Shown here piece after piece: positions 21,593 through 57,048 of a DNA stretch of 64,000 nt. The number at the start of each line of letters is the position of its first letter. Position 1 is the first letter of the stretch. The position numbers were made by a program, and so were the translations under genes. The notes under the pieces were generated by a model. The model was given only the letters and a program-made list of their open reading frames with translations. It did not search any database and was not told where the DNA came from. Origin of the DNA: Nitrospinota bacterium (GTDB lineage: Bacteria > Nitrospinota_A > UBA7883); the NCBI GenBank assembly GCA_029881335.1, contig JAOUMU010000001.1:35172-99171 (forward strand). The letters are read 5' to 3'.

Positions 21593-23536
21593 TCAGTGCC
21601 CCGCCTCTTGCTCTTCCTTATTCTTGGCGGCCAGAATCGGCATCCAGAACATGAAGAACACGAGCGCCATGAATATCATAACTATGATGGTTACCACCCA
21701 TGCCGCGTAGGGCAGAGTGGGAGTGAACGCCTCTATAGAGTTATCGCGGAACACGGTGTACACGTGCCAGTGCTGACGGATGGCGGACCGGCAATAGCCC
21801 ATCAGCCCCATCAGCCACGTAAAGGAGACCGCAAGCATGAACAGGGCGTACTGCGCCCGGTCCGGCATATGGCCCCACCGGAACACTCCGATATCCTTGG
21901 CCCCCCTGAATTCCAGCGTCTGGAAAACAATACCCAACACACAGACCACCGCCGTGGTGCTCACCTGCGGTATCGACAGCCCGATCCGGATGTTGGCGGG
22001 AATCCAGTAGCTGTATACACCAAGAAACACAATATTGACAATGGCTGCCGTAAAGAGCGCAATCTGGATCGGCAGTCCGTTTCTGGCCCAGAAACCGTCA
22101 CCCGCAGGTCGTGAATTGCTCCGCATGAACAACTGGAAGCTTAAAAACGTGGACAATATCAGGATATTGACCGCCGTATTTTTCGCCGCCATGACTCCCA
22201 GCGGACCCAACACGGAGTGATGCGCCCCGCCGATCTGCGAAAGCTCCTTACTGTTCATGATCAGCGTATGGGGAGTGAACCACGTGAGAAACGCGATCAC
22301 GATAATGATCCCCAGCGGTTGAATGATGTAGTAGAACCTCTTGGAAGCTTCCGTGCGGCCCAAAGAGCACCAGAGGTAGTAGTTGGCCGACAGGAATATG
22401 GCCCCGATCAGCACCGCCTGCAGAATAAAGAGCCAGGCAAAGACACCACCCATCAGGGTGATACCCATCTGCTGCGAATAGTCATAAACCTCCTTGGTGA
22501 GCCAGTATCCCGCGAATGGCAACGGCAGAAGGCCGGCCATGGCGATAATGAACGAGGTGTACCCCATCCAGTCGTAGTGGGCCTTCTCCTCCGCCGAGCT
22601 GGTGGTAATAAACTTGAACGCCGCATAGGCCGCCGTCAGAGAACCACCGTAGGCGATGTTGGCTATGAACCGGTGCAGGTTCAGCGGATTCCAAAGCTTG
22701 CCATGAATCGCCGCCCAGGAGTCGCCCAGGAACTGGCCCTCCGGCCCAATCCCCGAGGGCGCCATCATGAACGAGGCCCAGGAGTTGGAAAGAACCATCA
22801 ACACCATGCCGGAGCCGTTAAGCCCCAAGCCCAGGCCCAGGTGCAACCACTTCAGACCCGGCGAGGAACTCATCTTGTCCCACCCGTAATAATAGGTGTA
22901 AACAAAGAAGCTCTCCGCGAAGAACATCAAGGCGTAAATGATCATCGTCTTGCCAAAGACAGAGGTCATGTACGCCATAAAATCCGGATAGAAGACCACC
23001 AGCAGGATCGAAAGCAAGCCTCCAAAAGAAGCCGCCAGTGAAAACCCGGTCATGGTCACCTTCATAAACTCGTGCGCCATATGGTCGTATCGCTTGTCCC
23101 CGGAGAGGACACCGATAAGCTCGATCACCCACACGAAGATGGGCACTCCCAGCACGAAGGCGGCGAAGAACAAATGAAGTTGCGCCGCAATCCAAACAGC
23201 CAGGCGGCCGTCAACCCCCGCCACCCGGGGATAGTCCTTCTCCTCCAGAGCGGGAGTGGTCATCGGCTTCCAACCCTCGTCGGCCGCCTCCTCCCCTTCC
23301 GTCGCGGCCCCTTCGGCAGGCGCCATCTCTGCGGAGGCTTCATCATGTGCAGGCTGCGCGGCCTCATTGGCCCACGCCTGCCCGGCAAAGAATCCCGCGC
23401 CATCGGACATGGGAGCCAGGCCCCCAGCCAGAACGACCATGAGGAACAGGCTCCCCACAAGCGCGAGAAACCGGCCTCCCTTGTTTTTTTCCTTCAGCCG
23501 GTCACAAACGCCGGCGCTCTTGGTCAGCTTTGACAA
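21593..23536 (-). CDS. cytochrome bd-like (CydA-related) polytopic membrane protein; first gene of the cytochrome operon
   Basis: 647 aa with about 14 predicted TM helices. The first helices resemble CydA helix 1-2 (W..AAQLHLFFAAFVLGVPIFVWV...). The CydA GRQPW signature is absent and no cydB is adjacent. Residues 40-110 are an Ala/Glu-rich extension. The call rests on topology and partial motif similarity only. Confidence 0.5.
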   Translation of the reverse strand: MSKLTKSAGVCDRLKEKNKGGRFLALVGSLFLMVVLAGGLAPMSDGAGFFAGQAWANEAAQPAHDEASAEMAPAEGAATEGEEAADEGWKPMTTPALEEKDYPRVAGVDGRLAVWIAAQLHLFFAAFVLGVPIFVWVIELIGVLSGDKRYDHMAHEFMKVTMTGFSLAASFGGLLSILLVVFYPDFMAYMTSVFGKTMIIYALMFFAESFFVYTYYYGWDKMSSSPGLKWLHLGLGLGLNGSGMVLMVLSNSWASFMMAPSGIGPEGQFLGDSWAAIHGKLWNPLNLHRFIANIAYGGSLTAAYAAFKFITTSSAEEKAHYDWMGYTSFIIAMAGLLPLPFAGYWLTKEVYDYSQQMGITLMGGVFAWLFILQAVLIGAIFLSANYYLWCSLGRTEASKRFYYIIQPLGIIIVIAFLTWFTPHTLIMNSKELSQIGGAHHSVLGPLGVMAAKNTAVNILILSTFLSFQLFMRSNSRPAGDGFWARNGLPIQIALFTAAIVNIVFLGVYSYWIPANIRIGLSIPQVSTTAVVCVLGIVFQTLEFRGAKDIGVFRWGHMPDRAQYALFMLAVSFTWLMGLMGYCRSAIRQHWHVYTVFRDNSIEAFTPTLPYAAWVVTIIVMIFMALVFFMFWMPILAAKNKEEQEAGH

Positions 23537-25980: not shown

Positions 25981-26645
25981 AAGAGCTTTCCCTGCTGGTG
26001 CAGCATGGCGAGAACGTCCAGGCCGTTTCCTGCGCCGAGAAACTTTTGGCCCAGTCGTGCCCCATGGAAGATATCGTAAAGGCTCTCTCCGATGGCCTGG
26101 AAGTTCTCCGCAACAAGTGCACCATAGAAAACTTTCAGTTGCTCGACGTTTTACTTGCCACCAGGGCCATGGTGGAGGTGGTGGATGAATGCCTGGCCAG
26201 AAAGCTCCAGAACGAATTGGACAATCTGGCCACCACCCACGAAGCCACCCAAAGCGCAGAGCCGACCAGGACTTTGGTCATCGGCACTATCCAGGGGGAT
26301 ATCCACGATCTTGGAAAGCATATTGTGGCCACCTTGTGCAGATTCAAAAACTTGCGGGTAATAAATCTGGGCAAGGATGTTTCCGTGGAGCAGTTCGTGG
26401 ACACAGCCATCGCCGAGAATGCCGATTTCATTGGCGTCTCCAGCCTTATGACAGTCTGCCTCTCCAGGATAAGCGAGATAAAAAATGAGCTGGCGCGGCG
26501 GGGACGAAACGAGATTACGGTCGTGGCAGGGGGTGGCGCCGCCCAACAAAGCTCGCCTGACAGGCTCAATGTCGATTATGTCGCACACGACGCTTTCGAC
26601 GGGCTCGATTATTTTCTCAGCGACATCCTTCCAGTTAAAAGTTGA
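25969..26645 (+). CDS. cobalamin-binding corrinoid protein (MtaC/MtbC-type: helical cap plus Rossmann B12-binding domain)
   Basis: DxHxxG motif (GDIHDLGKHIV), SxL (SSLMT) and GG (VVAGGGA). The ATG at 25969 overlaps the last codons of the regulator. The longer track ORF from 25767 is rejected because it lies inside the regulator gene. Confidence 0.75.
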
Positions 26646-29383
26646 ATTCCACAGAGAGAATACAAGCTGTCATCGGCTTTGGCCGGGTGGATAGGCCACC
26701 CGTGGCCCCGGAGCTTATCGCGGTCACGGCCACCATCTGTGGCGCGGCGGTGGGCGATTATGTCAAGGATGGCGCCGTTATCGCCCAATGCCAGATGGAA
26801 GCCGCACGCATAACCGGCTCTGATGCTTTATTCGCCGCCGCCGACCTGTGTGTGGAGGCGGAAGCCCTGGGATGCGAAGCCCATTTTCCCCGGAACAACT
26901 ACCCGCATATAAAAAGCCCTATCGTCCACTCCTATTCAGACCTGAAACAGCTTCGCCTTCCAGATCCCACCTCGGATGGAAGGATGCCCCAGATACTGAA
27001 AGCCGTGCGGCTTCTGGCTGACGATTCGGATGGCCGCCTGGTCCTCGGCAACGCCGTAGGACCCATCACCATGGCTTCCAGAATCATGGATATAGAGAAG
27101 ATGCTCTATATGATAGTGGATCAGCCAGATAAATTCAGGGAGATAATCGAGTTTTGCGAAGGTGTCGCCAGCCGGTTCGTCGACGCGATCCTGGAGGCCG
27201 GCGCCGACGGAATATTGATCTTTGATCCTTCAGCTTCCCCGGCGCTCCTGCCACCCAGGATTTTCCGCGAATTCGAGCTGGAGCCGATCCGCCGCATCCT
27301 GGCGGGGGCCAAGCAAAAAAATCCATCCGTAGTCACCTGGTACTCTGTAGCGGGCCCGGTCCAGACCAACACCGCCATCATCTCCGCAGTGGGGGCCGAT
27401 GTCACCACGGTGGATTACCCCGTACCGCTGCAAACCGCCATGGAATACTCCGGCCACACAGTGATAAACGGCAACATCAGGCCCGCCCTCTTTCTGGAAG
27501 GGACGCCCTCGCAGGTATATGACGAGGCGATGACACTTTTAGACCAAACTCGCCTGTCGGAGCGATTCATACTCGGAAGCGGCTGTGAAATCCCGATCAA
27601 CTCACCGGCAAGGAACATAATGGCCCTGCGACGCGCAGCCAATGATCACGCCTCCCAGATTACCCAGATCAACGAACCAGCGGCAGGGAAAGTCCGGGCG
27701 ACGTTTCACCCCCACAACCGCGCCATTTATGTGGAGACAGGCCAGACCATTCTGGAGGCGGCCGCCATGGGGGGCGCCCCCATCACCACATATTGCGACC
27801 TCACCGGTGTATGCGCCGAATGTGTGGTGACCGTGTGCAATGGGAAGGTCTCCGCGCTGGACATGATTGAAGAGGCCCAACTGGGAAGCCTGGGCGAAGG
27901 GGGAGGAAGGCTGGCCTGCCTCGCCAAAATCCAGGGAGACGTGGAGATCTACGTTCCCTTTTCCTCGCGCCGCATCCCGGACAAGGCTTGCGCCCCTGCC
28001 CAACTTTTCGACGAATCGACCTGTGCCGATTCCCACTCGTCGGATTTCGACCCCGTGTTCCCCCCCATGCGGGAGAAGGCCAGGATCTCCGCCGCCGATC
28101 ATGGCTCCAGGCTGCTTCATCAGGATAATTTGGGCGCAGGGGCACCTTGCGGGGGCAATTTGCCCTGTCATGGGGCGATGTCCCGCTCCTCGTTCGCCGT
28201 GGCGGTGGATATGTCTGGTGAAAACGCCGTGGCCTATGTCCACGACATTGGCAGCGCTGAATTCCGCCACGCAGGCTCCTTCCTGGGCCCGGTGGCCGCC
28301 GTGGGGCTCAATTCCGCTGAAATCGATACCAGAAGAGCCTTGGACCCTCCAATAAGCCGCAAACTGCGGGAAGAGTCCACCCGGCTTTTCAATTCCATAG
28401 TCAACTGGCTTTACGAAAGCCACTCTATAATGCCGGAGCGAGTACGGGGCCTTCTGGTCACCGGCTGCCCCATGGCCGACGATACCTTGCGGCCCCCCGG
28501 CGAGTCCCTGCCTGGAGAATGGGCGCAAATCACCTGCGGAGGGATCGCCGAAGCGCGGATGTCCGACTATCCCGGCCTGAAGGTGCTTATGTGGCCTAAA
28601 CCACCCCACCGATTCGGCGGCGCATCCAGAGATGCCGCATTCATCCTTGCCACCATGCCCTCCCCCGCTGCTGAACCTGCGCTGTTTATACACCTGGGTT
28701 CATCCGGTTCGATAACCGCCCACTACCAGGGGCGATATTACACCCATCGATTCCCCTTTGGTAATTTGCTGGAGCGCCCTATCCCCGGCGTATCCCGGGG
28801 ATTTTTCAACTTCCTGATTCATGAGGCGCAAGTCGATGGGCGGGGTGTAACCAGTTTCAAAACCTTCAACGGCTCGGCCCCCCTGGGATTGCTGGGTACG
28901 GCCATGGTGGGAGCGGCCGCCGGAATGAAACGCCACGGAATCATCGACGACAAGGGCTTTGTCCAGGGCAAGTGGGCCCCTGTGGTGGAAAACCGATTTG
29001 TGGTGGTTCCCAAGCAAAAGACCGCCGGATACAGCCCTATCACCATCGGCTGGGAAGATATCGACAAGCTGATGATAGGGACGGGAGCATGCTCTCGGGC
29101 CGTATCGGATGTCCTGGACGCTGTCCATCTTTCCCCGGAGCAGGTGGAACGGGTTTTCGTCTCCGGCCCGTTTGGCGTGGTGGCGGACCCGGCGGACCTG
29201 ATTGAACTCGGCTTTATCCCGGATTCGTGGAAGGGGAAAATACAGTTTGTTAAAAACGCCGCAGGGCTGGGTGCGCGGAAGGCGCTTTTCTCTTCCCGGG
29301 CCAGAAAAAGGGCGGTGGTCATAGCATCCTCCATGGCGCCCCTGTCCCAGGCCCCAGGCGCCAGATATGGAGAATCCAAATGA
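26642..29383 (+). CDS. three-domain fusion: MtaA/CmuA-family (URO-D fold) methyltransferase, plant-type [2Fe-2S] ferredoxin, and RACo-type ASKHA ATPase (DUF4445), i.e. a reductive activator of corrinoid proteins
   Basis: Residues 1-340 match the URO-D/MtaA pattern (PVQTNTAIISAVGADVTTVDY, ...GSGCEIP). Residues 350-440 contain C-x5-C-x2-C...C (YCDLTGVCAECVV...RLACLA). Residues 450-913 are Gly-rich ASKHA-like. Start and stop overlap the neighbouring genes by 4 nt (ATGA). Confidence 0.7.
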   Translation: MNSTERIQAVIGFGRVDRPPVAPELIAVTATICGAAVGDYVKDGAVIAQCQMEAARITGSDALFAAADLCVEAEALGCEAHFPRNNYPHIKSPIVHSYSDLKQLRLPDPTSDGRMPQILKAVRLLADDSDGRLVLGNAVGPITMASRIMDIEKMLYMIVDQPDKFREIIEFCEGVASRFVDAILEAGADGILIFDPSASPALLPPRIFREFELEPIRRILAGAKQKNPSVVTWYSVAGPVQTNTAIISAVGADVTTVDYPVPLQTAMEYSGHTVINGNIRPALFLEGTPSQVYDEAMTLLDQTRLSERFILGSGCEIPINSPARNIMALRRAANDHASQITQINEPAAGKVRATFHPHNRAIYVETGQTILEAAAMGGAPITTYCDLTGVCAECVVTVCNGKVSALDMIEEAQLGSLGEGGGRLACLAKIQGDVEIYVPFSSRRIPDKACAPAQLFDESTCADSHSSDFDPVFPPMREKARISAADHGSRLLHQDNLGAGAPCGGNLPCHGAMSRSSFAVAVDMSGENAVAYVHDIGSAEFRHAGSFLGPVAAVGLNSAEIDTRRALDPPISRKLREESTRLFNSIVNWLYESHSIMPERVRGLLVTGCPMADDTLRPPGESLPGEWAQITCGGIAEARMSDYPGLKVLMWPKPPHRFGGASRDAAFILATMPSPAAEPALFIHLGSSGSITAHYQGRYYTHRFPFGNLLERPIPGVSRGFFNFLIHEAQVDGRGVTSFKTFNGSAPLGLLGTAMVGAAAGMKRHGIIDDKGFVQGKWAPVVENRFVVVPKQKTAGYSPITIGWEDIDKLMIGTGACSRAVSDVLDAVHLSPEQVERVFVSGPFGVVADPADLIELGFIPDSWKGKIQFVKNAAGLGARKALFSSRARKRAVVIASSMAPLSQAPGARYGESK

Positions 29384-42408: not shown

Positions 42409-45400
42409 CTATGGCGTGAGGGTGAACACCTCGTTTTTGGCCAGCATTTCTTTTATCTTCTCCCTGGAGACCGGCTTGCAAAATATGTAACCCTGCACCT
42501 GGTCGCACTTTATTCCGCTCAAAAAGGAGAGCTGCTCCAGGGTCTCCACTCCCTCGGCCACCACCTTCAGGTTTATCTCATGCGCCATGGAGACCACCGC
42601 CTTGGCCACGCTTTTTGCGTCCGGGTCTTTAAACAAGTCCACTACGAAGCTGCGATCCAACTTCAGATAATTGATGGGGAACTTCACCAGGTAGCTGAGG
42701 GAGGAGTAGCCGATGCCGAAATCGTCTATGGAAATGTTAAAGCCCCACTTGCGCAAAGCCCGCAGTTTTTCCACGGCGCTTTCGATATTTTTCACCAGGG
42801 CGTTTTCAGTAAGCTCCACCTCTATCCGCCTGGGGTTGAGGCCATGTTTTTTTGTGGCGCTTATCAGCTTGTCTACGAAATTCAACTGCTCCAGATCCTT
42901 GGCGGAGAAGTTTATCGATATGGATATCCCGGTCACCTCCTCTCCGGCCAGGCCTTCGGCCAGCAGTTCGTTCATGAAAACGCAGGCGGTGTCCAGCATC
43001 CATTCGTCCAGTTCGCGTATCAGGCCGGTATCCTCGGCCACGGGGATGAACTCTGCGGGCGAAATGGATCGCCCGTCGTGGGTCCATCGCATCAGCCCCT
43101 CTAGGCCCGCCATTTTTCCGGTGGCCAGTTCTATCTTCGGCTGAAAGACCGCCGATATCTCATTCTTTTCCAGCGCCTTTCTCAGCTTGCTTTCCAGTTC
43201 GTGGCGGCGCACAGCATTGTCGTTGAGCGACTTGGTGAAGAACATGAAGCTGTTCTTCCCCACGGTCTTGACGTTGTACATTGCCAGGTCAGCGTTTTTC
43301 AGCAGATCCTCGGCCGTTTGCCCATTTTGGGGATAGAGGGATATCCCCACACTAGAGGAGATGAACAGCTCCTCCTTCTTGTGGACAAACGGCTCGGAGA
43401 GAGAGGCGTTGATGCGCCTGGCCACTGCGGCGGCCTCTTCCTCGCTGGTCATATTCTCTATAATCACCGTGAACTCGTCGCCACCTAACCGGGCCACAGT
43501 GTCCTCCTCCCTGGCGCAACCCACCATGCGGATAGCCACACCTCGCAGCAATAGATCCCCCACGGCATGACCCAGGCTGTCATTGATCAATTTAAATCCG
43601 TCCAGATCCACGAAGAGGACAGCGAAAATGGCGTGGGCCCTTTTGGCCCTCACGATGGCATGTTTCAGCCGGTCTATGAAAAGCTGCCTATTGGGAAGCC
43701 CGGTAAGCGCATCGTGGTACGCCTTGTACTCCACCTCTTTTTCGCTGGCTCGCAATTCGGTGATGTCATAGAAAACCGCTGCGTACTGGGTGGTGGCCCC
43801 GGAAAAGTCCTTAATGGCGGTAATGGTGGTCTTTTGCAGGTATGCCTCCCCGCTTTTCCGCCTGTTCCAAATCTCACCTTTCCATCTCCCAGCCGACAAA
43901 AGCGTGTCCCACATCGACTTGTAAAACTCCTTGTCATGCTTTCCCGACTTCAGGATGCTAGGATTCCCTCCCACTGCCTCCCCGGAGGAATAGCCTGTTA
44001 TCTGGGTGAAGGCCGGATTGATCGACTGGATGATTCCCCTGGCATCGGTGACGACCACTCCTTCAGCGGAGTTTTCAAAGACGCTTGCCGCCAATTCCAG
44101 TTTCTCCTCGGTCTTTTTTCTCTCCGTGATATCCGTGGAGATGTTGCATATGGCGTATGGGTCGCCCGACATCCTGCGCAGAGGAAACTTCATGGAAAGG
44201 TAAACGTGCTTCTGATCACCAAACACAGCCTCCTCCTCCATCTCCCTGGGCTCAGAGCCCATCAGTGCCCGCATGTCGTTTTCCGCCAGACGGTCCGCCA
44301 CCTCCCTGGGAAATATGTCGTAATCGGTTTTCCCTTTGACCTGTTCCTTTCCCATCTTTATCAATCGGGCATATCGCCGGTTCACAAGGATATACTTCCC
44401 CTCCTTGTCCTTCAGGTAGATTATGGCCGTGGTGTTGTCTACGATGGTCTGCAAAAGCTGCTCCTGGCGGCGAACGTCTGTGATGGCTTCGCGCATGGCT
44501 TCATTGACCTTTACCAGGTCTGCGGTGGCCATCTCGGCCACCTCCCGGGCTTTGAGCAGTCCCTGAGAGTAACCTGACTGGATATGGGTGATCGCCAGGG
44601 AAAGCAAAGCCGACAGGGCCACCGTAATACCCAGGATTGTATAAAAAAGAAACCTCATGTTTATATAAGGCCCCAGAGCCTCGGCCTCATCTATCTCAGT
44701 AGCTATCCCCATCTCCAAATCCTTGTCCCACAACCAGCAGCCGATCACCCGCACCCCACGGTAATCACGATATCCGCTCGCTTCGCATCCACCCACCCCG
44801 GCTTTTACCTGTTGGGCCATCAGGGTCAGTGGCTGGGCCTCGCGGTCCATGGAGGGAGTCCATCCATCGACCAGGTCCCCGCCCGGGTCGCGAACCTGGA
44901 CAGATAATATGCCGGTCTCTCCTTCCTTCAGCAATCCAGCGGCCACCAGATGGGCCAGGAACCTGCTGTCTGTGAGCATAAGCCCGTCCCGGCTCAAGGC
45001 ATAGGTTTCGCCGGAGTAACCGATCCTGCCCAGTTGCATGACTCCGGTGAACTCAATGGCGGGATCGACTGTCAGCGCCAGAGCGGCGATCACTTTTCCA
45101 TCCTTATCCCATATGGGGGAGATGGCGAACATGACCGGGTAGTCCTCCACCAGCCTCCCGTCCGAGTCGGCCACCGGGATATGCGGCGTCATTGGAGGGG
45201 TCATTGTCGGCAAACCCTCCCTAAACACCCTCTCCAGCTGATCTTCGTTTTCTCTGGAGATTACGTTTTCCACCCCCAGGTCGTGATCTCCGGATGAGGC
45301 CACATTCAGATAATCTGGGGCAATGATAAAGAATCCCAACCCCTTGTGACGGGAGCGTAGCAGCTTCCTGGCGCCATGGAGTCCGGGACTGGATAGAATC

Positions 45401-45729
45401 GACTTTCTGTCTCTGGACGTCGCCAGCTGGAGCTGCGCAATATCCACCAGGGGGGGAGAAATGGCTATGAGCCTGGCCAAGCCCATGTAGTTTTCTGACC
45501 AGAGATTAATGCCTTGCCTGGTGGAGCCCAGGACGGTTCTCAACGCGGCGGCGGAAGAGGCTCTGGTTTCCCATTCCATAGTCTCCATTCCCTTCCAGGC
45601 GGAGATGGAAACCAGGACAGTAAAAATGGCCAGCAGGATGATCAGATTCCTGAGTTTTATCATGTCAGGGCAAAGGCAAACGGACCGGACACTGGCTGCC
45701 AAACAGGACATCCCCCCCAGCAATGACAC
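42409..45729 (-). CDS. membrane sensor with periplasmic Cache/CHASE-like domain, PAS domains, GGDEF and EAL (c-di-GMP turnover)
   Basis: 1106 aa. Two TM helices flank an approximately 330-aa periplasmic domain. PAS repeats follow. Then GGDEF (RLGGDEFTVII) and EAL (ELTENALV...DDFGIGYSSLSYL) domains. Confidence 0.8.
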   Translation of the reverse strand: MSLLGGMSCLAASVRSVCLCPDMIKLRNLIILLAIFTVLVSISAWKGMETMEWETRASSAAALRTVLGSTRQGINLWSENYMGLARLIAISPPLVDIAQLQLATSRDRKSILSSPGLHGARKLLRSRHKGLGFFIIAPDYLNVASSGDHDLGVENVISRENEDQLERVFREGLPTMTPPMTPHIPVADSDGRLVEDYPVMFAISPIWDKDGKVIAALALTVDPAIEFTGVMQLGRIGYSGETYALSRDGLMLTDSRFLAHLVAAGLLKEGETGILSVQVRDPGGDLVDGWTPSMDREAQPLTLMAQQVKAGVGGCEASGYRDYRGVRVIGCWLWDKDLEMGIATEIDEAEALGPYINMRFLFYTILGITVALSALLSLAITHIQSGYSQGLLKAREVAEMATADLVKVNEAMREAITDVRRQEQLLQTIVDNTTAIIYLKDKEGKYILVNRRYARLIKMGKEQVKGKTDYDIFPREVADRLAENDMRALMGSEPREMEEEAVFGDQKHVYLSMKFPLRRMSGDPYAICNISTDITERKKTEEKLELAASVFENSAEGVVVTDARGIIQSINPAFTQITGYSSGEAVGGNPSILKSGKHDKEFYKSMWDTLLSAGRWKGEIWNRRKSGEAYLQKTTITAIKDFSGATTQYAAVFYDITELRASEKEVEYKAYHDALTGLPNRQLFIDRLKHAIVRAKRAHAIFAVLFVDLDGFKLINDSLGHAVGDLLLRGVAIRMVGCAREEDTVARLGGDEFTVIIENMTSEEEAAAVARRINASLSEPFVHKKEELFISSSVGISLYPQNGQTAEDLLKNADLAMYNVKTVGKNSFMFFTKSLNDNAVRRHELESKLRKALEKNEISAVFQPKIELATGKMAGLEGLMRWTHDGRSISPAEFIPVAEDTGLIRELDEWMLDTACVFMNELLAEGLAGEEVTGISISINFSAKDLEQLNFVDKLISATKKHGLNPRRIEVELTENALVKNIESAVEKLRALRKWGFNISIDDFGIGYSSLSYLVKFPINYLKLDRSFVVDLFKDPDAKSVAKAVVSMAHEINLKVVAEGVETLEQLSFLSGIKCDQVQGYIFCKPVSREKIKEMLAKNEVFTLTP

Positions 45730-45990: not shown

Positions 45991-46066
<76 letters not shown>

Positions 46067-46079
46067 CCATATATAATCT

Positions 46080-46155
46080 TGGCGTCCCCAGCGGGAGTCG
46101 AACCCGCGTCGCCGCCGTGAAAGGGCGGTGTCCTGGGCCACTAGACGATGGGGAC
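46080..46155 (-). tRNA. tRNA-Glu (UUC)
   Basis: The reverse complement is GTCCCCATCGTCTAGTGGCCCAGGACACCGCCCTTTCACGGCGG...GGGGACGCCA. It is near-identical in pattern to E. coli tRNA-Glu. Confidence 0.9.
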
Positions 46156-46186
46156 GTCTTAATGCCAATACAATCGCGTATATTTT

Positions 46187-46262
46187 TGGTGAGCCGCGAA
46201 GGACTCGAACCTTCGACCCACTGCTTAAAAGGCAGTTGCTCTACCTCCTGAGCTAGCGGCCC
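46187..46262 (-). tRNA. tRNA-Lys (UUU)
   Basis: The reverse complement is GGGCCGCTAGCTCAGGAGGTAGAGCAACTGCCTTTTAAGCAGT...GCGGCTCACCA. The anticodon loop is CTTTTAA. Confidence 0.9.
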
Positions 46263-54451: not shown

Positions 54452-54676
54452 TCACACGGCGTCTATAAACTCCACTGCGGAGTAGCCCGCTTTTTCGATC
54501 GCGTCGGCCATCATCTCGTTTGTGACGCGAACCTCGTCGAAGCTCACCCGGGCCTGTTGCCCCTCCAGGTCCACTTTCGCCGTCTCCACTCCATCGATCT
54601 TTGCTAGCGCCTGCGATAGCCAGTTGACGCAGTGCCCGCAGCTCATACCCTCAATGCGAATCACCCGCGTTGTCAT
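54452..54676 (-). CDS. heavy-metal-associated (HMA, CopZ-like) metallochaperone domain protein
   Basis: GMSCGHCVNWLSQALAKIDGV MxCxxC motif. The start is moved to MTTRVIRIEG, whose ATG overlaps the CBS gene stop as ATGA. The track ORF extends an implausible 46 codons upstream. Confidence 0.65.
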   Translation of the reverse strand: MTTRVIRIEGMSCGHCVNWLSQALAKIDGVETAKVDLEGQQARVSFDEVRVTNEMMADAIEKAGYSAVEFIDAV

Positions 54677-55071
54677 CCGCCCTTCGCGAATCCGGAGACG
54701 GAGCGCACCAGGTCCGACAGCGACACTATCCCCACCAGCTTTCCCCCCTCCGTGACGATCAGCTTGGAGACTCCCAGTTTGACCATCATCGCGGCGGCGT
54801 AGCGGATATCCCATTCCGGCTCGGCGGAGTATGCTGGGCGGCTCATCACGTCGAAGACGTTGAGCATGGATATCTGCTCATCCTCGGCCAGCACCTTGCG
54901 GGCGATATCCGTGAAGGTGACGATGGCGTATGGATCGTGATCGTGCCTGGGGGGCGCCACGGCGGATTTCACCTTGCGCGCCAGCATCAGCTCCAGGGCC
55001 TCCATCAATGTGGCGGAACCTTCGATGGTCACCACATCGGTGATCATCATGTCCTTTACTCTTGTAACCAA
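54673..55071 (-). CDS. CBS-domain pair protein
   Basis: Two CBS repeats (MITDVVTIEGSATLMEALELM..., VFDVMSRPAYSAEPEWDIRYAAAMMVKLGVSKLIVTEGGKLVGIVSLSDL). Confidence 0.7.
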   Translation of the reverse strand: MVTRVKDMMITDVVTIEGSATLMEALELMLARKVKSAVAPPRHDHDPYAIVTFTDIARKVLAEDEQISMLNVFDVMSRPAYSAEPEWDIRYAAAMMVKLGVSKLIVTEGGKLVGIVSLSDLVRSVSGFAKGG

Positions 55072-55122
55072 ACCTTCCTCCCTTGCTTTCCTGAGCCTGT
55101 ATTCTATCAGGCTCAGGAACGG

Positions 55123-55467
55123 TTATAAATACTCCTCGGCTTCCTTTTTCAGCGTGGTCAGCTGGCTCTCCAGCCCCACCACAGACTCAATGGGCATCGA
55201 GAATGATATCCCGTTGCCTGGGTGTCGCATCTCCCCCGCGTCGTATATGGCTTTCATAATCTTCTGGCATGTCCTTTTTTCCACCAGGGTGATGAACGCC
55301 TCCTGGGGCTTGTCCAGGGTTAGCCCAAAGAATGTCTTCGCCTCATTGCTACCAGTGCCCCGCACGTGGATGATGGTGGCGCCGGTGGCGCCGGCAGCTT
55401 TCGCCGCGTCCACCACCTCCTCGGTTTTGTCCGCCGGGCAGATAGTGAATACCAGGTTGAATTTCAT
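55123..55467 (-). CDS. P-II-like (GlnB superfamily) small protein
   Basis: 114 aa. Its fold signature and its context, directly downstream of two DUF1538-type membrane proteins, fit the known P-II-like/DUF1538 association. Confidence 0.5.
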   Translation of the reverse strand: MKFNLVFTICPADKTEEVVDAAKAAGATGATIIHVRGTGSNEAKTFFGLTLDKPQEAFITLVEKRTCQKIMKAIYDAGEMRHPGNGISFSMPIESVVGLESQLTTLKKEAEEYL

Positions 55468-56201
55468 TTTCTATCTCCTCTCTTTCTATACATGATTATT
55501 GTTTTCATCGATACGGCGTAGCCTAGCACCGTGATCATGGGAAACACGGAGGCAAACGCGATCAGCCCGAATCCATCCACTAGCGGATCTCTGCCGGGAG
55601 TGTTGGCGGCCAAGCCAAGCCCCAGGGCGGCCACCAGCGGCACGGTGATGGTGGATGTGGTCACTCCGCCAGAGTCGTAGGCCAGGGGAACGATTTCCCT
55701 TGGCGCGAACCAGGTGAGAGTCAACGCCACGGCGTACCCGGCCATGATATAAACCCACAAAGGGGCGCCGGTGGATATGCGATGCACCCCCACCGATAGC
55801 CCTACAGCCACCCCCAGGGCCACGGCGTTGCGCAACCGGAAGCTTTTCAGTCCGCCGGATGAAACCTCCTCCGCCTTCTGTGTCACGGCCAAAAGCGCCG
55901 GTTCCGCCATGGTGGTGGCATAGCCGATGCAAAAGGCGAAGAGAATGGTCCATCCTTTGTGATCCGGGTGGGAGAACTTTTCCGCCATCGCCTCCCCTAT
56001 GGGGAATATTCCAATATCCAGGCCAATCATGAAAAGGTAGAGCCCCGCCACCAGAGCCAGGAAACCACCCGCTATCCGCCGGGCGTTGGGCAGACGGGCG
56101 CGCAGCACGGCGAACTGGAAAAAAAGCGCCACCAACAGCACCGGCGCCACATCCCGAAACACCGACAGCATATCCTTTATAATCACGCCATGTTCAGCCA
56201 T
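55464..56201 (-). CDS. polytopic membrane protein, DUF1538-like (paralogue B)
   Basis: 245 aa with about 7 TM helices. It is clearly paralogous to the upstream gene; shared motifs include [16 protein letters not shown] and GGVTTSTITVPLV. Confidence 0.5.
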   Translation of the reverse strand: MAEHGVIIKDMLSVFRDVAPVLLVALFFQFAVLRARLPNARRIAGGFLALVAGLYLFMIGLDIGIFPIGEAMAEKFSHPDHKGWTILFAFCIGYATTMAEPALLAVTQKAEEVSSGGLKSFRLRNAVALGVAVGLSVGVHRISTGAPLWVYIMAGYAVALTLTWFAPREIVPLAYDSGGVTTSTITVPLVAALGLGLAANTPGRDPLVDGFGLIAFASVFPMITVLGYAVSMKTIIMYRKRGDRK

Positions 56202-56893
56202 TACATCACCACAATTCCGTAAATCATGACGGTTACCATGGGAGTCATCGCCGCAAAGGCAACCAACCCGAATCCATCGATCAAAGGATTACGGCCGGAG
56301 ATGGAGCTCGCCAGCCCTACACCCAGGGCCGTGACCAGAGGCACGGTCACCGTTGATGTGGTCACCCCCCCGATATCATAGGCAAGACCGATTATCCTGG
56401 TTGGCGCCATCGAGGTCAACGCCATCACCACCACGTATCCGCCTATGAAGTAGTAATGAATCGGATGACCCAGGATTATCCGGATGCAGCCAAGAGCAAT
56501 CCCTATCGCCACTCCTCCGGCCACGGTGTTTCGCAGTGTAAACGCCTGCAAGCCCCCCCCGGTTATCTTCTCCGCTTTTTCCGCCACCACAATAAGGGCC
56601 GGCTCCGCCATGGTGGCCGTATATCCTATGGCCACCGCGAATGCCAGCAGCAGCTTTATATCCCCCTTTTTAGCGAAGGAGTATGCCAGAGACTCTCCCA
56701 GCGGGAAAAGCGCCATTTCCAGCCCGCGCATGAAGAGGAAGAGGCCGGTAATGACCAGGGCTATTCCCGCCAACATCCTGGGTGTGTTGGGAAAACTCTC
56801 CCCGATGACCACGAACTGGAAGAAGAAGATGACGGCGAGCAGCGGGGTCACGTCCATGACGGAGCGGAAGAATAGCTGGAAGAAATATTTCAT
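56201..56893 (-). CDS. polytopic membrane protein, DUF1538-like (paralogue A)
   Basis: 230 aa. Shares the motifs of paralogue B. Its stop overlaps the start of paralogue B. Confidence 0.5.
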
Positions 56894-56971: not shown

Positions 56972-57048
56972 TGGTCGGGGCGAGAGGATTCGAACCTCCG
57001 GCCCTCTGCTCCCAAAGCAGATGCGCTACCAGGCTGCGCTACGCCCCG
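56972..57048 (-). tRNA. tRNA-Pro (UGG)
   Basis: The reverse complement is CGGGGCGTAGCGCAGCCTGGTAGCGCATCTGCTTTGGGAGCAGAGGGCCGGAGGTTCGAATCCTCTCGCCCCGACCA. It matches the bacterial tRNA-Pro pattern. Confidence 0.9.

Follow-up and report, generated by a model that had tools for sequence, protein, structure and literature searches.

A DUF1538 transporter module with PII-like and CBS-pair proteins and a clade-specific CopZ-like gene in a Nitrospinota genome

The window analyzed here, a 64-kb stretch of DNA from a Nitrospinota metagenome-assembled genome (MAG), carries on its minus strand (positions 54452-56893) a module of five genes that encode two DUF1538 membrane proteins, a PII-like protein, a stand-alone CBS pair, and a CopZ-like HMA protein. 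We favor, with a probability of roughly 0.55, a reading in which the module specifies a monovalent cation/proton antiporter that is gated by the PII-like and CBS sensors and accompanied by the HMA protein as a lineage-specific accessory. The two DUF1538 paralogues would assemble as a heterodimer, a UmpAB-type secondary transporter that most likely exchanges monovalent cations (Na+/K+/Li+) for H+, and this transporter would be controlled after translation by the two dedicated cytoplasmic sensors. The domain identities, the paralogy, the co-occurrence counts, the gene fusions, and the missing canonical PII ligand residues are results of the analysis, while the substrate, the physical gating, the ligands, and the part played by the HMA protein are interpretations. 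The core so read is of a type already known, the PII-gated transporter; its specific combination with a DUF1538 heterodimer, a non-canonical PII-like protein, and a CBS pair is new. A literature search on DUF1538, PF07556, and UmpAB found no paper describing the linkage to PII-like and CBS genes or to HMA, nor one on the regulation of the module.

Two tandem DUF1538 paralogues related to UmpAB

Both membrane proteins belong to the DUF1538 family, each scoring above the gathering threshold of PF07556 (Table 1) and covering profile positions 2 to 211. A preliminary description of the module, made from the sequence without database searches, had taken the two for tandem paralogues, and the comparison bears this out, with 51% identity over 214 residues (E = 6e-77). 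It had also presented DUF1538 proteins as uncharacterized putative transporters, a view that is outdated. Work on Halomonas zhaodongensis published in 2017 showed that two DUF1538 proteins, UmpA and UmpB, co-immunoprecipitate as a heterodimer, that UmpAB rescues the antiporter-less Escherichia coli strain KNabc, and that everted vesicles with it exchange Na+, Li+, and K+ for H+ in a pH-dependent manner (PMC5484666). NCBIfam now holds models for both subunits. These models, named “Na,Li,K/H(+) antiporter subunits,” are the best NCBIfam matches of the window proteins, with 244.1 bits for subunit A against UmpA and 229.0 (UmpA) and 221.4 (UmpB) bits for subunit B.

The likeness to UmpAB extends to gene order, the window having adjacent paralogous DUF1538 genes in the same A-then-B arrangement, and to the conserved acidic residues of the window proteins, which match those highlighted for UmpAB (PMC5484666). 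In contrast, the window proteins are without the 14-residue loop insertions of UmpA and UmpB, no HMA gene is present at UmpAB-type loci, and the published work expressed UmpAB alone, with no mention of PII-like or CBS partners (PMC5484666).

To place the two subunits, we used profiles built from the first- and second-position DUF1538 halves in other phyla. Subunit A scores higher with the first-position profile (308 bits versus 292 bits with the second-position one), and subunit B scores higher with the second-position profile (334 bits versus 273 bits). By position, the window subunits correspond as orthologues to the two halves of the fused, roughly 500-amino-acid proteins that occur in many phyla, and, judged from these profiles, the A/B duplication is ancient.

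The AlphaFold2 model of subunit B is all-helical, with a mean predicted local distance difference test (pLDDT) score of 90.4. The most conserved motifs of the protein, T-M-A-E-P (97-101) and D-S-G-G-V-T-T-S-T (176-184), lie at helix breaks of this model, positions that appear to be those where ion sites occur in secondary transporters. The invariant polar residues of the transporter are E100, D176, D209, R124, and R141, together with the GGVTTST motif at the helix breaks.

Conservation of the DUF1538/PII-like/CBS module across phyla

When 1.84 billion cluster representatives were scanned in full with HMMER, 2,698 DUF1538 family members were recovered at an E value of ≤1e-3, the top-scoring of which are mostly of the fused type; at 50% identity, the module has about 2,700 family clusters. 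Gene neighborhoods were compared in 80 broader loci, which are the best matches of the scan taken at one genome per GTDB species and share 49 to 58% identity with the query. These loci span Campylobacterota, Gamma-, Alpha-, and Betaproteobacteria, Desulfobacterota, Scalindua, Aureispira, and one Peribacteria MAG. Open reading frames (ORFs) were called in them and then searched with hidden Markov models (HMMs) built from the window proteins.

A PII-like gene lies directly downstream of the DUF1538 genes, or is fused to them, in 77 of the 80 loci, and one of the three loci without it ends at a contig edge. The CBS pair comes next in order in 56 loci. The recurrent linkage of DUF1538 to PII-like genes that the preliminary description stated is thereby upheld over many phyla, including by gene fusions. 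In 57 loci, a single protein of about 500 amino acids comprises both DUF1538 halves, and 11 loci from Arcobacteraceae and Sulfurimonadaceae encode DUF-DUF-PII single polypeptides, which were confirmed with Pfam. Because of these eleven fusions, the distribution argues for a physical association of the PII-like protein with the transporter, and this pattern of adjacency and fusion is of the AmtB-GlnK or SbtA-SbtB type.

Two loci extend this picture. A Halieaceae MAG (L037:5113-7389, plus strand) encodes a DUF1538-DUF1538 protein that carries a cytidylate-kinase-like P-loop domain as a fusion, and neither a PII-like nor a CBS gene follows it downstream. The usual regulators look to have been replaced here by a different nucleotide-binding domain, and this swap suggests that a nucleotide-binding regulator is a recurring theme. 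In a Nitrincola MAG (L080), a pair that scores 420.8 and 489.2 bits against the UmpA and UmpB cutoffs of 490 and 500 bits is found in the arrangement PII, DUF, DUF, PII, CBS, and shares 51% (A) and 46% (B) identity with the window subunits. Since this near-UmpAB pair sits in a PII/CBS context, followed by PII-like and CBS genes as in the window, the experimentally studied UmpAB type belongs to the same module.

The Nitrincola locus (L080:2483-7457) holds two complete modules in tandem, the one just described being followed by a fused DUF-DUF gene, PII, and CBS. The extra PII-like gene upstream of the first of these modules is likewise seen in L047 and L057.

A non-canonical PII-like protein and a CBS pair as putative sensors

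The PII-like protein is a member of the P-II superfamily by its match to PF00543, which exceeds the gathering score (Table 1), and by its fold. Its model (mean pLDDT score, 83.5) shows the beta-alpha-beta-beta-alpha-beta fold with a disordered T-loop at residues 36 to 54 and an extra C-terminal helix, and Foldseek matches it to GlnK and GlnB at a probability of 1.0 with template modeling scores of 0.6 to 0.7 (about 0.65). The protein was aligned with 89 module-linked homologues and with GlnB and GlnK of E. coli, and the canonical PII contacts R38, Q39, K58, G87-D-G-K90, R101, and R103 were assessed together with the modifiable Y51. At the GlnB positions the window protein has S38, N39, E51, I90, G101, and E103. 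Over the 90 aligned PII-like sequences, R38 and Q39 are variable, K90 is changed to I, L, V, or M, R101 is changed to G in 88, R103 is D or E in most, and there is no Y51. The window protein is thus not a canonical PII protein with ATP/ADP and 2-oxoglutarate contacts and a modifiable tyrosine. Because the canonical ligand contacts are replaced, its NCBI name, “P-II family nitrogen regulator,” is a label at the level of the fold only.

As in AmtB-GlnK and SbtA-SbtB, the module has a small PII-fold protein that adjoins, and is sometimes fused with, a membrane transporter, and this protein has a long flexible T-loop with a conserved motif specific to the family (K-T-F-F-G-L-T). The T-loop of PII proteins plugs AmtB and SbtA (for the “valve plug” view, see bioRxiv 10.1101/2023.08.10.552651). 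The KTFFGL segment would dock on the cytoplasmic face of the DUF1538 transporter, as GlnK does on AmtB and SbtB on SbtA. The module differs from those systems in that its transporter has no relation to Amt or SbtA, in that the PII-like protein has other residues at the canonical contacts for ATP, ADP, and 2-oxoglutarate, and in that a second sensor, the CBS pair, is co-conserved, which is no feature of the Amt or Sbt systems.

The CBS protein matches PF00571 in two stretches, and its best solved relative is CBS-CP12 (PDB 5nmu; E = 1.3e-23). The ribose-binding motif G-h-h-S/T-x-x-D is kept in the second CBS motif across 63 homologues (GIVSLSD in the window), and motif 1 of the window protein has AIVTFTD. 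With two CBS motifs and the ribose-binding motif, the protein is a CBS pair (Bateman module), and it is presumed to be a sensor of an adenosyl ligand, which may reflect energy status. Its two CBS motifs and its encoding together with a transporter are shared with CBS-regulated systems such as CBS-CP12 and the MgtE, OpuA, and ClC transporters; unlike the CBS domains of MgtE, OpuA, and ClC, it is a separate protein alongside a PII-like protein.

Cyclic di-AMP was considered as a ligand shared by the PII-like and CBS proteins, by comparison with PstA/DarA and CbpB/DarB, and was dropped as a general explanation. The CBS protein scores 17.7 bits against the CbpB/DarB equivalog model (NCBIfam NF041630), far below the cutoff of 125 bits. 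This ligand is also disfavored by the frequency of the module in Gammaproteobacteria and Campylobacterota, groups in which cyclic di-AMP signaling is generally not known.

Genomic neighbors of the transporter and its probable substrate

Genes for K+ channels with RCK domains (Ion_trans_2, TrkA_N, and TrkA_C) share the strand of modules that have no CBS gene. In Arcobacteraceae (L045, L059, L061, and L069), the channel gene lies upstream of the transporter with a separate gene for a 233-amino-acid TrkA-like protein between them. In Desulfobacterales, it directly follows the PII-like gene (L024 and L048) or lies about 2 kb downstream (L056). A TVG[YF]G filter is found in the Arcobacteraceae and L056 channels. 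In Nitrospinota-type relatives, the module is flanked by genes for the Na+-pumping oxaloacetate decarboxylase (beta and gamma subunits) in two arrangements, upstream and divergent in L005-L008, L091, and L092 and downstream and convergent in L094; in the window itself these genes do not adjoin the module, and the rest of the window was not searched for them. Moreover, a genome-based model for the growth pH optimum counts DUF1538 among its ion-transport features (PMC13255231). These neighbors and this listing support a monovalent cation as the substrate, as do the homology to UmpAB and the invariant acidic, Arg, and Thr/Ser-rich positions of the transporter.

A different substrate, such as bicarbonate, another anion, or a small metabolite, would make the PII-like and CBS proteins regulators of carbon, nitrogen, or energy status, as in SbtA-SbtB, and the antiport by UmpAB a heterologous side activity. 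This is what might be expected from the known PII-transporter partnerships, which concern ammonium and bicarbonate (bioRxiv 10.1101/2023.08.10.552651), and from the many chemolithoautotrophs among the carriers of the module, which include Nitrospinota, Scalindua, Sulfurovum, Sulfurimonas, Thioalkalivibrio, and Guyparkeria. The evidence for antiport comes, in addition, from a single study, and a search of solved structures found none with the fold of the transporter, so there is no structural precedent for its substrate. However, the module occurs equally in heterotrophs (Marinobacter, Halomonas, Idiomarina, Vibrio, Shewanella, and Hahella), the PII-like protein is without the 2-oxoglutarate and Mg-ATP contact residues, and the window subunits are 46 to 51% identical to the near-UmpAB pair. 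Taken with the recurrent K+ channel neighbors and the place of DUF1538 in the growth-pH model, these observations make another substrate unlikely in our judgment.

A CopZ-like protein encoded with the module in one clade

The fifth gene encodes a protein with the CopZ-type HMA fold and the metal-binding loop M11-S-C13-G-H-C16. Its description as a CopZ-like MxCxxC protein at the end of the operon, with an ATGA overlap with the CBS gene, holds. Like CopZ, it has the GMSCGHC loop and the size of the Bacillus and Enterococcus proteins, and it scores 65.3 bits with TIGR00003 (“copper ion binding protein,” which is also its NCBI product name) against a cutoff of 62 bits. The cutoffs of the CopZ-specific NCBIfam models are not reached (NF033795, 75.1 versus 91 bits; NF033794, 71.6 versus 95 bits).

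Since a word-indexed search with this short query gave 11 matches, relatives of the HMA protein were collected by a metagenome scan. Relatives at ≥55% identity, found in 12 genomic contexts, are referred to as the HMA group, and 76 more distant CopZ-like genes from the same scan (33 to 53% identity) served as a control set. All proteins of the group carry GM[ST]CGHCxxW, in which the Trp three residues after the second Cys is specific to the clade. None of the 12 contexts adjoins a P1B ATPase gene, versus 58 of the 76 controls, which adjoin a large ORF with HMA domains; three of these ORFs checked with Pfam are P1B ATPases, and the remaining 18 controls are mostly on short contigs. The HMA gene is found at the 3' end of the DUF1538 module in 11 of the 12 contexts. 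The genomic partner of the group is therefore the DUF1538 module and not a CopA-type ATPase, and, as this difference from the controls shows, the group has exchanged its usual CopA neighbor for the module.

All HMA-linked modules belong to a Nitrospinota-type clade, and their downstream neighbors are of at least five different kinds. The neighbor is an ABC-F gene in the window and FtsK in L001-3, where the transporter is 91% identical and a sigma factor gene lies upstream, both flanks thus differing from those of the window. The commonest neighbor is pyrF (L004, L005-8, L091/92, and L096). Two unknown genes followed by CoaBC are found in L089/90 and a multihaem cytochrome in L095, and L097, L098, and L100 also have an HMA-linked module. 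The HMA gene is kept where the CBS gene has been lost (L004, L005-8, L095, and L100), and it is missing from the close relatives L093 and L094, which keep the rest of the module. A contig of 1.3 kb (L099:59-1326) carries an HMA relative (56% identity; CGHCVQW) between a DUF72 gene and pyrF, with no DUF1538 module.

Outside this clade, no HMA gene adjoins the module in any of the 80 broader loci, even with a broadened HMA profile, and one of these loci has a CopA-like ATPase 1.9 kb away. The gene-neighborhood statistics, which the preliminary description had put forward as a check on the module, thus support the linkage of DUF1538, PII-like, and CBS genes, whereas the co-conservation of HMA stands within the Nitrospinota-type clade, with loss of the CopA neighbor, and fails beyond it. 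By its distribution, the HMA gene is best regarded as an accessory specific to this clade and not as part of a universal system.

The MxCxxC protein had been read as a hint that the transported substrate is Cu or Zn. The DUF1538 pair would then move a thiophilic or transition metal, with the HMA protein as its metallochaperone and the PII-like and CBS proteins gating by nucleotide status. Consistent with this, the HMA gene stays at the 3' end of the module next to at least five different kinds of neighbor, is translationally coupled to the CBS gene in the window, and is never beside the P1B ATPase that ordinary CopZ-like genes adjoin. HMA-linked transporters are enriched in one transmembrane Cys, B91 (5 of 6, versus 6 of 77), and it was the single candidate found when we looked for metal ligands specific to these transporters. 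However, the transporter alignment of the module loci has no invariant Cys or His, neither subunit has a CPC-like or Met-rich motif, and the invariant acidic and Thr/Ser motifs are identical in transporters with and without a linked HMA gene. The nearest characterized relative exchanges alkali cations for protons (PMC5484666), and the recurrent neighbors in other genomes are K+ channel and Na+ pump genes. The absence of HMA from the 80 modules of other phyla, the HMA relative that stands without the module in L099, and the internal promoter-like element described below, which suggests that HMA can be expressed independently of the transporter genes, also speak against a metal substrate. A look for metal-handling genes elsewhere in the window found no P-type ATPase among its ten largest ORFs. 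Because of this result, and because the other evidence favors a monovalent cation, the case for Cu or Zn comes down to the presence of the HMA gene itself, and we regard such a substrate as improbable.

Gene organization and an internal promoter-like element

The translations of all five genes are identical to consecutive NCBI proteins, MDH5508802 to MDH5508798, from a Nitrospinota MAG contig of 99.5 kb, so the gene boundaries (Table 1) are independently supported. The five co-directional minus-strand genes reported at the outset match the NCBI gene calls exactly, including the TTG start of the CBS gene, and the domain assignments made then (two DUF1538 proteins, P-II, CBS pair, and HMA) all hold with Pfam and NCBIfam. 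For the HMA gene, the longest ORF (54452-54814) was rejected in favor of the shorter one. The overlapping stops and starts noted at 56201, 55464-55467, and 54673-54676 can be read directly from the sequence: TAATG at 56203-56199, a 1-nucleotide overlap, joins subunits A and B, and ATGA joins subunit B to the PII-like gene (55467-55464) and the CBS gene to the HMA gene (54676-54673). The module is nevertheless not contiguous throughout, as a gap of 51 nucleotides (55072-55122) that had gone unmentioned separates the PII-like and CBS genes. These two genes overlap or are less than 20 nucleotides apart in most phyla, and the gap is longer in the Nitrospinota-type clade.

Table 1. Genes and intergenic element of the module, in window coordinates
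Feature	Positions	Strand	Length (aa)	Evidence
DUF1538 membrane subunit A, first-position subunit	56201-56893	minus	230	PF07556, 221.7 bits (E = 8e-66; cutoff, 22.6); NCBI MDH5508802
DUF1538 membrane subunit B, second-position subunit, basic cytoplasmic C-tail	55464-56201	minus	245	PF07556, 229.8 bits (E = 3e-68; cutoff, 22.6)
Non-canonical PII-like protein, putative signaling role	55123-55467	minus	114	PF00543, 45.4 bits (E = 1e-11; cutoff, 25)
Promoter-like site and 12-bp hairpin between the PII-like and CBS genes	55088-55129	minus		Consensus scan, folding
Stand-alone CBS-pair protein, TTG start	54673-55071	minus	132	PF00571, 78.7 bits (E = 4e-22); NCBI MDH5508799
CopZ-like HMA protein, GMSCGHCVNW	54452-54676	minus	74	PF00403, 59.5 bits (E = 4e-16)

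A consensus scan of the intergenic region revealed a -35-like TTTATA at 55129-55124 and, 17 nucleotides downstream of it, an extended -10 element, TGATAGAAT, at 55109-55101, with TG before the -10 hexamer. Among 10 HMA-linked lineages, 6 have the motif TGnTAnAAT at a distance of 12 to 43 nucleotides from the stop codon of the upstream PII-like gene, the rest of the intergenic DNA having diverged. This motif directly precedes the HMA gene in L005 and L095, where the CBS gene is absent, and is itself absent from the two HMA-less relatives (L093 and L094). From this we infer an internal promoter that drives the CBS and HMA genes, besides read-through from upstream. In the window, the HMA gene is translationally coupled to the CBS gene and probably also co-transcribed with it from this extended -10 promoter.

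A perfect 12-bp hairpin (55119-55088, minus strand; free energy, -22.1 kcal/mol; z score, -4.4) encloses TGATAGAAT. As a conserved terminator or attenuator it was rejected, since it has no U-tract and the stems at this position in four relatives are weak and non-significant; it might serve this particular genome as an operator or as an element for mRNA stability. A riboswitch or leader RNA was rejected on an Rfam scan of the whole window at gathering thresholds, which found four tRNAs only and no family at the module.

One of these genes, for tRNA-Pro(TGG) (56972-57048, minus strand), lies 78 nucleotides upstream of the start codon of subunit A. The sole sigma-70-like site upstream of the operon, TTGATA-18-TAGAGT (57099-57070), precedes it, and for this reason the operon may be co-transcribed with the tRNA. 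The relatives have no tRNA at this position.

The promoter-like element also bears on whether the HMA gene belongs functionally to the module. It could be a passenger, a copZ-type gene of the ordinary kind that buffers copper, is expressed from its own promoter, and has stayed beside the module by descent in one clade, with no functional relation to it. A TGnTAnAAT motif upstream and the NCBI name “copper ion binding protein” would fit such a gene, as would its absence from all 80 non-Nitrospinota loci, its loss from L093 and L094 with the module otherwise kept, and its position in L099, where it is still beside pyrF without the module. On the other hand, the same promoter-like element would also drive the CBS gene, a certain member of the module, and the HMA gene overlaps the CBS stop codon in both the window and L001. 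The HMA gene also accompanies the module rather than pyrF in the lineages with FtsK (L001-3), with two unknown genes and CoaBC (L089), and with the multihaem cytochrome (L095), is retained where CBS has been lost, and, unlike the control set, never has a CopA neighbor. We hold a pure passenger to be rather unlikely and rate some functional tie of HMA to the module as slightly more likely. Within the Nitrospinota-type clade, such a tie is plausible. Most likely, the HMA protein would couple the module with the Cu(I) or thiol state of the cytoplasm or be co-expressed with the module; its presence is probably no sign that the substrate is a metal.

It is also conceivable that the CopZ-fold protein was recruited as a third dedicated cytoplasmic subunit, so that Cu(I) or thiol-redox state directly modulates the exchanger, or that the DUF1538 fold moves a soft metal in this clade. 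More broadly, DUF1538 with its PII-like protein would represent a third major class of PII-gated transporters after Amt and Sbt, with a non-canonical ligand site. We hold this proposal to be speculative and give it little chance.

Several points weigh against the sensor-gated cation antiporter that we favor. The antiport function of the family comes from one heterologous study, and the window subunits, at 244 and 229 bits, fall well below the UmpA and UmpB equivalog cutoffs of 490 and 500 bits (NF041627 and NF041628), which rules out membership of the window pair in the UmpAB equivalogs. Docking of the PII-like and CBS proteins on the transporter is suggested by analogy with GlnK and SbtB, and the ligand of the PII-like protein cannot be read from the canonical contacts, so that nucleotide sensing by this protein is an assumption. 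The percentages obtained from the 80 loci describe relatives at 49 to 58% identity and not the whole DUF1538 family. Finally, the HMA group, without a CopA neighbor, stays with the module through several rearrangements, as a metal function would predict, and an antiporter for monovalent cations offers no mechanism for this retention.

Other features of the window

Other genes of the window include an ORF of 913 amino acids (26642-29383, plus strand) in which a URO-D-type methyltransferase domain is joined to a 2Fe-2S ferredoxin domain and to the ASKHA domain from the C terminus of RACo (reductive activator of corrinoid proteins), a fusion that is unusual for a Nitrospinota genome. On the minus strand are a 647-amino-acid protein with a weak match to cytochrome bd oxidase subunit I (21593-23536), a 1,106-amino-acid protein with dCache, PAS, GGDEF, and EAL domains (42409-45729), and a cluster of three tRNA genes (45994-46262).

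Implications

The DUF1538/PII-like/CBS combination is a widespread module and offers a testable new case of transporter control by the PII family. In this and related genomes, it is misleading to annotate the PII-like gene as a nitrogen regulator, since its product lacks the 2-oxoglutarate and ATP contacts and is a dedicated partner of a transporter. In marine and alkaline habitats, the module probably serves the homeostasis of Na+, K+, and pH. Nitrospinota are key marine nitrite oxidizers, and in this group the switch of a CopZ-like protein from CopA to the DUF1538 module provides a specific lead on how metal or redox status may relate to ion homeostasis.

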